In this document: positions 21,607 to 30,728 of the stretch, in pieces | Position numbering within the stretch: the stretch's first letter is position 1 | Layout of the letters: the number at the start of each line of letters is the position of its first letter | Virus record (IMG/VR): IMGVR_UViG_638275546_000001 | Length of the DNA stretch: 30,728 nt | From: a virus | Taxonomy: Duplodnaviria; Heunggongvirae; Uroviricota; Caudoviricetes; Peduoviridae | Reading direction: 5' to 3' (one strand) | Position numbers and translations under genes: made by a program | The notes under the pieces: model-generated | Told to the model about the DNA's origin: nothing | Seen by the model: only the letters and a program-made list of their open reading frames with translations | The model's database searches: none

Positions 21607-22769
21607 TGCTGGATACGCTGACATTTGATGCAGGCAGTACGCTGACGCCGGATTACATGCTGATGCTCGACAGCAGGGATATTACCGGCAATATCAGCGA
21701 TCGACTGATGAGCATGACCCTGACGGATAACCGGGGCTTTGAGGCTGACCAGCTTGATATTGAACTGAACGATGCCGACGGGCAGGTCGGGCTGCCGGTT
21801 CGTGGCGCTGTCCTGACGGTGTATATCGGCTGGAAAGGTTTTGCCCTGGTATGCAAAGGGAAATTTACCGTTGATGAGGTTGAACACCGGGGCGCACCGG
21901 ATGTGGTCACCATCCGCGCCCGGAGTGCAGATTTTCGCGGGACGCTCAATTCCCGCCGTGAAGGCTCCTGGCATGACACCACGCTCGGTGCGATTGTTGA
22001 GGCGATAGCCTCCCGTAACAGGCTGGAAGCCAGTGTCGCTCCGTCACTGGCCGGAATTAAAATCCCGCACATCGACCAGTCGCAGGAGTCTGATGCGAAA
22101 TTCCTGACCCGTCTTGCAGAACGCAACGGCGGTGAGGTGTCGGTAAAAATGGGAAAACTGTTGTTTCTCAAAGCGGGGCAGGGGGTGACGGCCAGCGGTA
22201 AAAAAAACCCGCAGGTCACCATAACCCGCAGCGACGGCGACCGCCATCATTTTGCGATTGCTGACCGTGGAGCCTATACCGGCGTAACGGCAAAGTGGTT
22301 ACACACCAAAGACCCGAAGCCACAAAAGCAGAAGGTAAAACTGAAACGCAAAAAGAAAGAGAAACACCTGCGCGCACTGGAGCACCCGAAAGCGAAACCA
22401 GTCACGCAGAAGAAAGCGCCAAAAGTACCGGAAGCGCGCGAAGGTGAATACATGGCTGGTGAGGCTGACAACGTTTTTGCCCTGACCACGATATATGCCA
22501 CGAAAGCGCAGGCCATGCGCGCCGCTCAGGCGAAGTGGGATAAACTGCAACGGGGCGTTGCGGAGTTCTCCATCAGCCTTGCCACTGGTCGTGCTGATAT
22601 TTACACGGAAACACCGGTCAGAGTGTCAGGCTTTAAGCGCGTCATAGACGAGCAGGACTGGACAATCACTAAGGTGACACATTTTCTGAATAATAGTGGC
22701 TTCACGACGTCCTTAGAGCTTGAGGTCAGGCTTTCTGATGTGGAGTACGAAACAGAAGATGATGATTAA
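21606..22769 (+). CDS. D: Tail protein D (late control D family)
   Basis: 387-aa ORF; P2 gpD-like. Confidence 0.9.
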   Translation: MLDTLTFDAGSTLTPDYMLMLDSRDITGNISDRLMSMTLTDNRGFEADQLDIELNDADGQVGLPVRGAVLTVYIGWKGFALVCKGKFTVDEVEHRGAPDVVTIRARSADFRGTLNSRREGSWHDTTLGAIVEAIASRNRLEASVAPSLAGIKIPHIDQSQESDAKFLTRLAERNGGEVSVKMGKLLFLKAGQGVTASGKKNPQVTITRSDGDRHHFAIADRGAYTGVTAKWLHTKDPKPQKQKVKLKRKKKEKHLRALEHPKAKPVTQKKAPKVPEAREGEYMAGEADNVFALTTIYATKAQAMRAAQAKWDKLQRGVAEFSISLATGRADIYTETPVRVSGFKRVIDEQDWTITKVTHFLNNSGFTTSLELEVRLSDVEYETEDDD

Positions 22770-22849
22770 TGTTTTGTTTTATCTGTTTGTTTTATAAGGA
22801 TAAATTAAATAAAATGGCACCATTAACAAAACCGGAAGAGGTGCTCGCG

Positions 22850-23068
22850 ATGTTTCATTGTCCTTTATGCCAGCATGCCGCACATGCGCGTACAAGCCGC
22901 TATATCACTGACACGACAAAAGAGCGTTATCACCAGTGCCAGAACGTGAATTGCAGCGCCACGTTCATCACTTATGAGTCGGTACAGAGATACATCGTGA
23001 AGCCGGGAGAAGTCCACGCCGTGGGGCCGCACCCGTTGCCGTCAGGGCAGCAAATTATGTGGATGTGA
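22850..23068 (+). CDS. ogr: Late-gene transcriptional activator Ogr (C4 zinc finger)
   Basis: Start at internal ATG of ORF 22769..23068 (MFHCPLCQHAAHARTSRYITDTTKERYHQCQNVNCSATF..., 72 aa); CxxC...CxxxxC zinc-finger motif; recognised as P2 Ogr-like. Confidence 0.88.
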   Translation: MFHCPLCQHAAHARTSRYITDTTKERYHQCQNVNCSATFITYESVQRYIVKPGEVHAVGPHPLPSGQQIMWM

Positions 23069-23078
23069 TCACAAAAAT

Positions 23079-23105
23079 AGCCCCTCAGTCGAGGGGCTTA
23101 TTTAT
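23079..23105 (+). terminator. Rho-independent terminator after ogr
   Basis: AGCCCCTC-agtc-GAGGGGCT stem-loop followed by TATTTAT, about 10 nt after the ogr stop. Confidence 0.7.
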
Positions 23106-23341
23106 GGTCGATGTGGACGCTATGTGGACAGTGGTTGACATAAATCCATTTATATCATCAGGTTAGGTGCTTTTTTGTGACACCATCCCTGTCTTCCCCC
23201 ACATGATGTGGGGGTTTTTTTTATCAATTACTTACATGCAATCAAAAGTAAAAACAGTCACTTATCGAAAGCTGTAAGGGTTTGGAGTGGTTTCAAAATT
23301 TCTTGAGTGTGGACACTATGTGGACACTCAGAGGGGGAAAT
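23106..23341. other. attP: Phage attachment region (attP) with arm-type integrase binding repeats and an IHF-like site
   Basis: Position between ogr and int as in P2; four direct copies of TGTGGAC arranged as two pairs (23112..23129 and 23308..23327); IHF-consensus-like TATCAATTACTTA at 23221..23233; the core crossover sequence could not be identified by eye. Confidence 0.6.
23196..23222 (+). terminator. Strong GC stem-loop with T8 tract inside the attP region
   Basis: CCCCCACA-tga-TGTGGGGG followed by TTTTTTTT. Confidence 0.6.
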
Positions 23342-24322
23342 TTATAACGTCACTCCGCCTTTTAGTGGATTCAGAGCGACGGCATTTTGCAGGTAGTCAG
23401 GCGCAAGGTGCGCATAGGCCATCGTCTGCTGAATGCTCGCATGTCCCAGAATCTGTTGCAGTGCGATTATATTGCCCCCGTTCATCATGAAATGGCTTGC
23501 GAATGTATGCCGCAGGATGTGGGTTGCCTGATTGGGTGGTATATCAGGTTTCACTCTGCGTAAAATCCCGCAAAATTTCTCATAATCAACTTTGAATAAT
23601 TTGGCGCTTGCCTCCTCTTTAACTTTTTTCTCCAGTTCCTCAGAAATCGGCACGGTTCGCTTTTTACCGTTTTTGGTTTTCAGGAAGGTAACCCTGCAAT
23701 TTGTAATCTGTGCTGGTTTTAGCGTGGCAACTTCCGTCCATCTTCCTCCAGTGCTCAGACATAAAAGCGCGACAAGTAAGTCATCACCAGCCAAAACATT
23801 TAACAGTTTTTCGATTTCTGCTTTTTCCAGGAACGTCATTTCAGGGTTGGCCTCCGCCAGTGGCGGCAGTCCGTGAATTGGGTGTTGCCCGGAAAATTCA
23901 TCCAATTGAATTAATTTTGTGAACATGCCGGATAATCGGTACATGTCACGGTTTATCGTTGCGGCACTGATACCATCACGTAGTCGTATGGAACGATAAT
24001 CCATCAAAGCCCTTTTGCTCATCCGGCTCACTGGTATATCACCTATGCCGCTGATGGTTTTGAGTAGATGATTAAACTCTTTTGTTCCATGCTCGTGGTT
24101 TTGCCCGTGATATTTCCACCAGATGTCCAGCAACTCACTCAAAGTTCGGCGGTCTGCTCGCTGGCCTCCCCATTCTTTCTGACTGGCATTGGCGATTGTG
24201 TATCGCTCAAATGCTAGTGCTTCAGCTTTTCTTTCGAATTTCCTGCGGATGCGTTTTCCGTCGCGACCGCGAGGTCTAATGTCCACTTCATAGCGACCAT
24301 CATCGAGCTTCTTAATTGCCAT
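23342..24322 (-). CDS. int: Tyrosine integrase
   Basis: Start at internal ATG (MAIKKLDDGRYEVDIRPRG..., 326 aa) preceded by GGAGGG; C-terminal catalytic region with HxxR and terminal Tyr context (ILGHASIQQTMAYAHL); P2 Int-like. Confidence 0.9.
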   Translation of the reverse strand: MAIKKLDDGRYEVDIRPRGRDGKRIRRKFERKAEALAFERYTIANASQKEWGGQRADRRTLSELLDIWWKYHGQNHEHGTKEFNHLLKTISGIGDIPVSRMSKRALMDYRSIRLRDGISAATINRDMYRLSGMFTKLIQLDEFSGQHPIHGLPPLAEANPEMTFLEKAEIEKLLNVLAGDDLLVALLCLSTGGRWTEVATLKPAQITNCRVTFLKTKNGKKRTVPISEELEKKVKEEASAKLFKVDYEKFCGILRRVKPDIPPNQATHILRHTFASHFMMNGGNIIALQQILGHASIQQTMAYAHLAPDYLQNAVALNPLKGGVTL

Positions 24323-24391
24323 AAGAAAGCCCTCCGGCGCTGTATTCACCATCTTGGTAGCAAATGGTGAAAATGTAATCTTTATATAGAG

Positions 24392-24685
24392 TTAGCCAAT
24401 CCTTTTCGCGGAGTGGTTGGACTCTGTTGACTCTGGCCCAATGTGCGCGAGAGCCGGTGCGATTTGTCCTGCGTCCGGCGCGGTTTTATCTGTCATAAGC
24501 CATAGAGCATATTTTTGGAATGTGGGATGCATAGTGATTTTTAGCAAAGCTGTGCCACCGGGTTCAAAGTTTCCTCCTTCATATTTTTTAAGTGTGCTTA
24601 GCGGTAACTCTATGATTTCACAGAATTTTGATTGGCTTAGCCCTTCAGCCTCACGCAAGGCCTTAATCTTTTCGCTTAATTTCAT
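24392..24685 (-). CDS. C: Immunity repressor C
   Basis: 97-aa ORF with N-terminal HTH-like segment and C-terminal ...GQIAPALAH... segment resembling P2 C; divergent from cox across the switch region. Confidence 0.8.
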   Translation of the reverse strand: MKLSEKIKALREAEGLSQSKFCEIIELPLSTLKKYEGGNFEPGGTALLKITMHPTFQKYALWLMTDKTAPDAGQIAPALAHIGPESTESNHSAKRIG

Positions 24686-24821
24686 TTGACATGGTGACTA
24701 TATAGGGACTAAACTCCCTCAAAACTGGAACCTATATAGGTTACATTGATTTGAGAATAAACCAGCGTCTAAACGGTTTTGAGTGGTTTAGAAAGGGCTG
24801 GATCCTATGAGGGTACCATAT
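24686..24821. promoter_or_regulatory. Lysis/lysogeny switch region (candidate Pe/Pc promoters and operators)
   Basis: Intergenic between divergent C and cox; two TATATA-centred palindromes, tgaCTATATAGgga (24695..24708) and perfect 14-bp AACCTATATAGGTT (24729..24742), centres about 33 bp apart; TTGACA at 24686..24691. Confidence 0.6.
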
Positions 24822-25094
24822 ATGGACGCTGAAAATTATGTGATTCAGTATCCGCTTGATGCGGTTCATGTGGATAAATTTGCTGATTTATTAGGGAAGC
24901 CAAAGACAGCCGTCAGTGAAATGGTGAAGGCAAATAAATTACCAATTATTGAATTGCGTGATCCTTGCAAACTGAAGGCTCGTGCCGGTGAAAAATGGGT
25001 TTTCATTCCTGAGTTTAATCGCGCTGTACGTGAGGCGTTTTATAACCGACCGGTTGAACAGCGTGATGCATGGCTTTTGTGGATGGGGTTGTGA
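24822..25094 (+). CDS. cox: Cox-like excisionase / lytic-switch DNA-binding protein
   Basis: Start at second ATG of ORF 24807..25094 (GAGGG about 8 nt upstream), 90 aa; position and size as P2 Cox, with similar C-terminal ...RDAWLLWMGL. Confidence 0.75.
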   Translation: MDAENYVIQYPLDAVHVDKFADLLGKPKTAVSEMVKANKLPIIELRDPCKLKARAGEKWVFIPEFNRAVREAFYNRPVEQRDAWLLWMGL

Positions 25095-29574: not shown

Positions 29575-30522
29575 AAATGCACAGAATACCAGGCGAGATA
29601 CCTCAGCATAAAACTTAAGGTCAGCCCCGTTTCTAAAGGACGTTAAAGCCTTGGGGTTATCAATAACAGAAGATAATAGGCGTAAATTTCGGGACTCTCC
29701 AACCTTTGTTTTCCCGGAATCATCCTTTTTATAAAGCCATACTGTAAGTTCTCTGGTATTTTCTCTATTTATATGATGTGGGTGAATTATTACATCATTG
29801 GATGTAATATCACCATATTCGTCTTTTTCTGAAACGCCAACAAACAATCCAATTTTCTCGTCAGCTAAGGCTGTAGATAAAATTGAAAACTTGATCGATT
29901 CTTCATCTAATCCATCAATATCATAAAAGTTATTGCTCTCCATTACTTTATAAACGGCTAAAGCATCTAGATTTCTCTTGATATGATCTTTTCTGCTACC
30001 GATTGCACGAGCAACCTGATGATATCGATCATTAGTCGGTGAGTTTGGGGAGGTGAGACCAAAAAGTTGCTCGATATAACGAGCCTTCGATAGAGGTTCC
30101 CATTGTTTGACACCAGTGATATGTCTGAAACCCAAATAAGGTAAAATTTCAGCTCTGGTATCTCTAACGATCACTGGTAATTTTTCTAGTGTACCTAGTT
30201 TATCTTTAGCGCTTTCGGCGATTTCTATCATCCGGGAGCTGGGTCTGTCGCACTCATATGGGTTATGAATAAGTTTAACTGCCGTTAAGCGACGGTTGCC
30301 TTCCACAACGGTGTACTTATCTCCCTCTTTAACCGCAATAAGAGGCTCGCCAGGAAAAAATCCATTTTCTGCGATTGCATTCATCAAGTCTTCAATAGAG
30401 GTTGTTAGAGCTATATGATTTAGCATTGCTTCTGGGGTACGTTCAACACCTTCAGGAAGACGTGGATTTTTTGTATCAAGCTCAAGTTTATTGAGGTCGA
30501 TGTAATCAAGGCTTTCTGTCAT
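29530..30522 (-). CDS. Accessory protein at the tin/old position: ParB N-terminal-like (ParB/Srx-fold) domain protein, candidate anti-phage defence nuclease
   Basis: ORF track 29530..30555 begins at a TTG; first ATG is at 30522 (MTESLDYIDLNKL..., 330 aa); N-terminal ~100 aa carry the ParB hallmarks (I-DL-KL...NPR...; hydrophobic core; GEPLIAV; ...YTVVEGNRRLTAVKLI, cf. ParB GERRxRA box); C-terminal ~200 aa unrecognised; AT-rich, opposite strand to the early operon. Confidence 0.75.
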   Translation of the reverse strand: MTESLDYIDLNKLELDTKNPRLPEGVERTPEAMLNHIALTTSIEDLMNAIAENGFFPGEPLIAVKEGDKYTVVEGNRRLTAVKLIHNPYECDRPSSRMIEIAESAKDKLGTLEKLPVIVRDTRAEILPYLGFRHITGVKQWEPLSKARYIEQLFGLTSPNSPTNDRYHQVARAIGSRKDHIKRNLDALAVYKVMESNNFYDIDGLDEESIKFSILSTALADEKIGLFVGVSEKDEYGDITSNDVIIHPHHINRENTRELTVWLYKKDDSGKTKVGESRNLRLLSSVIDNPKALTSFRNGADLKFYAEVSRLVFCAFSKPPFLLCTLHLFI

Positions 30523-30709: not shown

Positions 30710-30728
30710 GGCGAGGCGGGGAAAGCAC
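30710..30728. repeat. cos: Right copy of 19-nt cohesive end (cos)
   Basis: Exact repeat of 1..19. Confidence 0.85.

Follow-up and report, generated by a model that had tools for sequence, protein, structure and literature searches.

The operators of the C repressor of phage P2 are described as non-palindromic direct repeats (PMC1904268, PMC1904263). In WPhi, O1 and O2 are two copies of TATTGGTGAC, experimentally defined C half-sites that flank the −10 element of the Pe promoter (PMC1904263, PMC1904268); the Pc promoter of this phage has also been mapped, and the measured overlap of the two transcripts is ~82 nt (PMC1904263). P2 Hy dis, whose C protein is 63% identical to that of P2, has 8-bp sites that lie 26 bp apart and flank the −35 element (PMC1904268). 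In reporters, point mutants of P2, P2 Hy dis and WPhi that are altered in both O1 and O2 escape repression, and single mutants do not (PMC1904268). The vir1 mutation of P2 is a Pro30Gln substitution in the C protein and not an operator mutation (PMC2995052). The crystal structure of P2 C is a symmetric dimer that resembles palindrome binders, with 26 Å between helices, and Massad et al. found it structurally similar to proteins of the 434, P22 c2 and C.Esp1396I type (PMC2995052).

Both termini of the 30,728 bp of DNA analyzed here, which we call the window, consist of the 19-nt P2 cohesive end GGCGAGGCGGGGAAAGCAC (1–19 and 30710–30728), and the P2-like phage genome that it represents is therefore complete. 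An earlier note on this DNA described two TATATA-centered palindromes between divergent repressor and cox genes, and the genes are indeed arranged in this way, with a P2-type C gene (~100 aa, HTH) on the minus strand and cox on the plus strand (Table 1). The C protein shares 42% identity with P2 C, 56% with WPhi C, and 66% with the C protein of Yersinia phage P37; P2 C is also the one relative for which a structure has been solved (2XCJ/2L49, E 1.9e-21). The longest cox open reading frame begins at 24807, but RefSeq annotations of identical prophages use the ATG at 24822, which has GAGGG 8 nt upstream and agrees with the start in P37 and WPhi; the true start is probably 24822, not 24807. The C, int, and cox genes of the window are all intact and wild type. 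Against the closest prophage found, that of E. coli SF-088, the window shows 12 mismatches over 28,845 aligned bases and a deletion of 2571 bp. The missing DNA (22387–24957 of the prophage locus, L091; junction at 29614–29618 of the window, with a 5-bp overlap) comprises the 3′ end of a ParB-domain gene, a hypothetical gene, and a DNA cytosine methyltransferase gene.

The two palindromes, tgaCTATATAGgga at 24695–24708 and AACCTATATAGGTT at 24729–24742, are exactly as the earlier note gave them. Their shared core CTATATAG occurs twice in the 30,728 bp (24698–24705 and 24732–24739) against an expectation of 0.09, and two or more copies were found in none of 100 shuffles. The centers lie 34 bp apart, not 33 as first given, although this is still about three helical turns and is within the 22–34 bp center-to-center range of known site pairs. 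The identical 9-mer CTATATAGG forms a direct repeat at the same 34-bp spacing (O1 copy at 24698–24706), so that the window holds two copies of this 9-mer in one orientation, as the wild-type allele holds two of CCTATATAGG. No perfect palindrome in the window is longer than the 14-mer singled out in the earlier note, but such a 14-mer is not in itself rare. Because ~2.2 perfect 14-mers are expected by chance per window, a lone palindrome is not the signal; the signal is the pairing of the sites, their position, and their conservation.

Table 1. Coordinates of the C–cox switch region and its neighbors (window positions).
Feature	Position	Strand	Sequence or content	Basis or remark
int	23342–24352	minus		neighbor gene around the switch
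C immunity repressor	24392–24685	minus	97 aa, HTH	ORF and Pfam HTH_3
Pe −35	24686–24691	plus	TTGACA	abuts C start codon; position as in P2 (annotated −35) and WPhi Pe
O1, predicted C operator 1	24692–24711		TGGTGACTAT (left half), ATAGGGACTA (right half); in Pe spacer	positional homologue of WPhi O1
Private change C to A	24697		O1, left half-site position 6	C in 16/16 related half-sites
Pe −10	24710–24715	plus	TAAACT	18-bp spacer; 10/12 consensus matches
Private change T to C	24714		Pe −10 position 5; makes TAAACT	TAAATT elsewhere
Extended inverted repeat	24718–24755	plus	outer arms CTCAAA...TTTGAG	encloses O2
O2, predicted C operator 2	24726–24745		TGGAACCTAT (left half), ATAGGTTACA (right half); perfect 14-mer 24729–24742	34 bp from O1, as in WPhi
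Private change C to A	24743		O2, right half-site position 3 (G on other strand)	G in 16/16 related half-sites
TAAAC repeats, candidate Cox boxes	24757–24765, 24769–24777, 24783–24791	plus, plus, minus		between O2 and Pc
Pc extended −10	24818–24810	minus	TGG TACCCT (TGGTACCCT)	overlaps cox ribosome-binding site
cox	24822–25094	plus	90 aa, first early-operon gene	Pfam Phage_Cox E 8e-23; replication genes next

The position of the palindromes matches that of the WPhi operators. The order in the window is TTGACA tggtga CTATATAGG gac TAAACT, with a second copy of CTATATAGG 34 bp on; that in WPhi is TTGACA gtaacc TATTGGTGAC t TATATT, with the second TATTGGTGAC 34 bp past the first. The switch is also widespread. 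It was found at ≥95% identity in 420 of the 5426 complete E. coli genomes, in 16 phage records (among them P24B2, ‘P2’ from strain T22, R18C, FSLSP004, vB_YpM_50, and HQ103), and in 57 IMG/VR and metagenome contigs. In the ~490 other copies examined, site 1 contains CCTATATAGG, a perfect 10-mer, and site 2 is TGGAACCTATATAGGTTCCA, a perfect 20-mer. Every copy outside the window has TGGTGCCTAT and ATAGGGACTA as the two halves of O1, and TGGAACCTAT and ATAGGTTCCA as those of O2, and we refer to these as the wild-type alleles.

Diverged relatives, drawn from 80 loci across genera, showed the sites to co-vary with the repressor. The recognition helix LPLSTLKKYE[GT]G is shared with the C proteins of a Kosakonia locus (L011, 82% identity) and an Enterobacter hormaechei locus (L025), and both of these keep TGGAACCTAT at both positions in flanks that have diverged. 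A Dryocola locus (L029) has GGACCTATATAGGG at both positions, and C homologues with different recognition helices have different repeats at the same two positions. Each immunity class thus has its own motif, which changes when the recognition helix changes; L010, L011, and L025, which share a helix, also share the motif. In the Kosakonia locus the right halves deviate (ATGTGTCC), so that specificity may lie mostly in one half-site, which is what has been proposed for P2 C. Relatedly, the loci from Enterobacter, Hafnia, and Dryocola (L025, L028, and L029) have palindromic operators of the CCTATATAGG type that are 29 bp, not 34 bp, apart, and in these loci the C homologue is followed by a different first early gene instead of cox (e.g., MSTTRKSTTKKAASSK...); the same repressor–operator module is thus paired there with another lytic partner.

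The suggestion that the palindromes are repressor operators in a C/cox switch is therefore supported by positional homology, conservation, and co-variation, and they are very probably the C repressor operators O1 and O2. From the sequence anatomy, these three lines of evidence, and the privacy and clustering of the mutations described below, we infer C binding, one dimer per site, and an escape phenotype. Taken as a whole, the reading in which O1 and O2 are C operators, each a dyad site for one dimer, and the window phage is a repression-escape mutant, seems to us a likely one. In the full texts covered by a literature search, CCTATATAGG returned nothing on phages, and Massad et al. 2010 (PMC2995052) was alone among them in joining the terms P2-like, C repressor, and palindromic; Karlsson et al. 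2006, on immunity classes, may already describe these repeats.

Compared with four other copies, the window has exactly three differences in 24340–24860, at 24697, 24714, and 24743. All 420 E. coli copies have at least three differences from the window in 85 operator bases (best identity 96.5%), the 16 phage records have three mismatches, and the 57 environmental copies, retrieved with a pattern that allowed any base at 24697, 24714, 24715, and 24743, have C, T, T/C, and C there, respectively. The window alleles at 24697, 24714, and 24743 were absent from the 420 E. coli prophages, the 16 phage records, and the 57 viral and metagenome copies. The change at 24697 destroys the invariant C6 of the left half of O1, and that at 24743 destroys the invariant G3 of the right half of O2. 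Three of the 12 mismatches to the SF-088 prophage fall within 47 bp (P = 9e-7; P = 2e-5 if the 136-bp interval of the earlier note is used).

Derived changes are thus present at conserved positions of both operators while the repressor gene is unchanged, which is the vir-type pattern. This pattern points to the window phage, which has its third private change in the Pe −10, having arisen from a very common E. coli prophage as a repression-escape (lambda-vir-type) mutant in which repression would be weakened. The phage may nevertheless be temperate, given that its C gene is intact and wild type.

On the other hand, the three private changes could be hitch-hiking or neutral. An explanation that invokes neutral drift or sequencing noise, and takes the phage for an ordinary temperate member of its immunity class, we regard as unlikely, though as one to be taken seriously. 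It would fit the wild-type state of C, int, and cox. Position 5 of the −10 hexamer is weakly constrained, and one natural allele, TAAATC, varies in the same hexamer. It does not fit the clustering of a quarter of all genome-wide differences (3/12) within 47 bp (P about 1e-6), the presence of the private alleles in 0 of about 490 other copies, or the placing of the operator changes, one per site, at positions invariant in 16/16 half-sites. Should the phage indeed be an escape mutant, it would be a natural experiment that identifies G3 and C6 of the half-site as contact positions, and a temperate phage turned virulent via two operator hits.

The earlier note proposed that palindromic operators would mean a different operator geometry for this repressor. 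This is partly so: the number, position, and spacing of the sites are as in WPhi, and it is the internal symmetry of each site that differs. The dyad symmetry itself was confirmed; the wild-type allele shows it more strongly, and it reappears among relatives. O1 has 7/10 dyad pairs in the window and 8/10 in the wild-type allele; wild-type O2, a perfect 20-bp palindrome, has 9/9 (p<0.002 vs shuffles). Sixteen half-sites from four related immunity types gave the consensus TGGaaCCTAT, in which G3, C6, A9, and T10 are invariant in 16/16, in left and right halves alike. The sites therefore have two-fold symmetry over 14–20 bp with the same conserved positions in both halves, and the description ‘non-palindromic’ does not apply to them. 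It is a trait of the P2, P2 Hy dis, and WPhi examples, not a proven requirement of the family.

It is doubtful that the sites are instead half-sites of the P2 type, i.e., an asymmetric 9–10-bp direct repeat, (C)CTATATAGG, read by one C subunit per dimer, with only incidental self-complementarity. Such an arrangement has precedent in that experiments have shown direct repeats in the operators of P2, P2 Hy dis, and WPhi (PMC1904268, PMC1904263). The 9-mer CTATATAGG is an exact direct repeat, and the Kosakonia sites (L011) match as direct repeats at 17/18 positions with the right half diverged. Each ~20-bp site is itself dyad-symmetric, and O1 and O2 are thus direct repeats and palindromes simultaneously. 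An asymmetric half-site leaves unexplained a perfect 20-bp palindrome in the wild type, which is expected 0.02 times per window, as well as the invariant positions shared by left and right halves in four immunity types and the orientation flips among relatives that have the same recognition helix.

These flips emerged from a survey of 68 non-redundant switches of the family. A significant second copy of the site was found in 44/68, of which 20 were direct, 12 inverted, and 12 both; the other 24 were not significant. With the same helix, GIALGTLKNYEGGHQ, O2 is direct in one locus (L022) but inverted in P37 (L001) and in L030; orientation differences extend to L014, L031, and L034. Free orientation is expected if a symmetric dimer reads each site. 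By homology (42% identity and E 1.9e-21 to 2XCJ/2L49), the window repressor may be such a dimer, with two recognition helices that would reach adjacent major grooves. Dyad symmetry is not a family-wide property, and this possibility was discarded: only about 22% of O2 regions in the survey beat shuffles for it, and none did so in the P2-type clade. The dyad-symmetric sites belong to a subset with KKYE- or RKYE-type helices that runs from E. coli to Pseudomonas, Ferrimonas, and Marinobacterium, and in WPhi-like phages the 18-bp sites are asymmetric, with a GGT-N12-ACC frame. In Pseudomonas, three C-like repressors (L062, L075, and L081; helix ...STYKKYEAS) have sites of the GGTTCC/GGAACC-TATATA-GG type after TTGACA, and the CC-TATATA-GG core thus extends far beyond enterobacteria.

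A wider generalization would be that many P2-type C repressors read 18–20-bp dyads or pseudo-dyads, with one dimer on each and orientation free, and that the window is a spontaneous escape double mutant. We put this forward tentatively, as somewhat short of an even chance. If true, reading of the full dyad would explain how a P2 C dimer that is symmetric in the crystal can have operators that are asymmetric, a mismatch long noted. The palindromic sites and orientation flips in any case bear on how a symmetric C dimer reads DNA, and the class to which the window belongs would suit co-crystallization or footprinting because both halves of each site are equivalent.

O2 also lies within a longer inverted repeat (Table 1). 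The leader RNA folds at −16.4 kcal/mol in the wild type (z −5.5) and at −10.1 kcal/mol with the window allele (z −2.5), the change at 24743 weakening the hairpin. WPhi-like relatives have an equivalent inverted repeat around O2 that includes some two-sided changes. Inverted repeats that enclose O2 and are longer than any dimer site were seen in many classes (L003, L001, L002, L014, L021, and others), among them CAAAAGGT-N12-ACCTTTTG in WPhi and a 34-bp near-perfect palindrome in a Providencia locus (L021). Given the predicted folds and these repeats, a hairpin may plausibly form in the Pc leader or at the start of the Pe RNA, and it would be compatible with operator function; a conserved leader inverted repeat could explain part of the symmetry of O2.

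The stronger proposal, that the O2 palindrome is mainly an RNA or DNA hairpin (a Pe 5′ stem-loop or a Pc leader element in the ~84-nt convergent region, with a role in stability, processing, or interference) and that O1 is unrelated, is improbable. The fold of the wild-type leader, the two-sided changes in WPhi-like relatives, and the reach of the arms CTCAAA/TTTGAG beyond any dimer-sized site are all in keeping with it. It leaves unexplained O1, which has the same core in the untranscribed Pe spacer, and the 34-bp register common to WPhi; moreover, the loop of the equivalent WPhi repeat is the proven O2 (PMC1904263), and the operator and hairpin readings are compatible, not exclusive.

The promoters of the switch were assigned by consensus and by homology to WPhi and P2. 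TTGACA-18-TAAACT is the sole sigma-70-like match in 24300–24900, and its −10 aligns with the TATATT of WPhi, P37, and SI7, in which Pe is mapped or annotated. The Pe start is predicted near 24720–24722, and the two site copies flank the Pe −10, with O2 spanning about +5 to +24 of the predicted transcript. For Pc, a minus-strand extended −10 (TGnTAnnnT) just upstream of the cox start was found in 65/73 C-family loci, at a constant distance of about 115–130 nt from the Pe −35 across the family. The same element in WPhi falls within the annotated Pc promoter; P2 lacks it and has its Pc elsewhere. The Pc start is predicted near 24805, which would give a Pe/Pc transcript overlap of about 84 nt.

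These assignments leave almost no room for the suggestion in the earlier note that the TATATA cores are the −10 hexamers of face-to-face Pe and Pc promoters, despite the resemblance of TATATA to TATAAT, the face-to-face promoters of P2/186 switches, and a weak −35 (TTTATT) with which the O2 core could pair at 17 bp on the minus strand: the O1 core is only 7 bp past the perfect TTGACA, inside the Pe spacer, and so cannot be the Pe −10; a sigma-70 scan of 24300–24900 found no minus-strand consensus promoter at O2, which together with the conserved alternative beside cox rules out the O2 core as the Pc −10; and, since the Pe −10 is TAAACT and the Pc extended −10 adjoins cox in agreement with the mapped WPhi Pc (PMC1904263), neither core lies 16–18 bp past a −35 and matches the mapped promoters of relatives.

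Between O2 and Pc are three TAAAC repeats (Table 1) that fit the P2 cox-box consensus TTAAA(G/C)NC(A/C) (PMC3936717) at 5–6 of its 8 specified positions, which makes them candidate Cox-binding sites. A fourth TAAAC element is present on the plus strand at 24709–24717, and two of the four elements are 12 bp apart. The private T-to-C change at 24714 turns CTAAATTCC into CTAAACTCC, a closer fit to this consensus.

Two other possibilities were considered and rejected. A candidate third operator, AATGTAATCTTTATATAGAG (24372–24391, between the C stop and the int start), resembles an inverted O2, but the heteroimmune phages WPhi, SI7, and P37 have almost this block too in spite of their different operators, so it is not immunity-specific. 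Around the int start, the C–int spacer (24345–24391) also has the inverted repeat TTCACCAT/ATGGTGAA, and it holds a TTATATAG block that resembles the operator core. Since these three phages conserve the entire spacer, it is not an immunity operator; its elements may relate to int expression. Identity with P2 Hy dis was likewise ruled out, because the window sites flank the −10 instead of the −35 and the window C shares 42%, not 63%, identity with P2 C.

In the mechanism that we propose, O1 would fill the Pe spacer directly past the −35 and O2 would cover the start of the transcribed region. Each site would be a ~20-bp dyad with the half-site TGGaaCCTAT and would bind one symmetric C dimer, the two dimers being three helical turns apart. 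With C on both sites, RNA polymerase would be kept out of Pe or trapped there, which would maintain lysogeny and immunity. Because prophages of this immunity type are present in about 8% of complete E. coli genomes (420/5426), the operators indicate which phages such prophages exclude, and bear also on how a phage escapes exclusion by a very common prophage.

Comparison with known switches places that of the window among those of the P2 type. The operators of 434, P22 c2, and C.Esp1396I have 14–20-bp two-fold symmetric sites like those of the window, but the proteins are unrelated in sequence to the window C. C.Esp1396I has two palindromic sites with a dimer on each, at a spacing of 15 bp center to center, unlike that of the window, and the window does not have the competition of two repressors for shared operators that is found in lambda, 434, and P22. 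Phage 186 is P2-like and has face-to-face promoters, as does the window, and its CI operators are inverted repeats (PMC1904263). However, the CI protein of 186 (196 aa, two domains) is unrelated and assembles into a wheel of dimers, with three sites plus distal ones, whereas the window encodes a P2-type C. P2 resembles the window in having two sites that flank the Pe −10 and a C protein of ~100 aa with an HTH that is a symmetric dimer in the crystal (PMC2995052); it differs in that its sites, two copies of GTTTAGAT, are non-palindromic 8-bp repeats with 22-bp rather than 34-bp spacing, that Pc is elsewhere (TATAAT, with an overlap of about 35 nt), and that the C proteins are 42% identical. Single-base changes in both sites are a feature also of lambda-vir-type phages and of the engineered operator mutants of P2, P2 Hy dis, and WPhi.

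WPhi is like the window in most respects: TTGACA abuts the C start, O1 is 6 nt past the −35, the spacing is 34 bp, the Pe −10 is flanked, Pc is beside cox, the transcripts overlap by about 82–84 nt, and the C proteins are 56% identical. The operator sequences are wholly different (the window core is CCTATATAGG), and the WPhi sites are asymmetric direct repeats whereas those of the window are dyad-symmetric over about 20 bp. O1 and O2 are a new, uncharacterized instance of the known P2-type switch; what is beyond the ordinary is clear dyad symmetry in a ‘non-palindromic’ family, and a private mutation in each operator.
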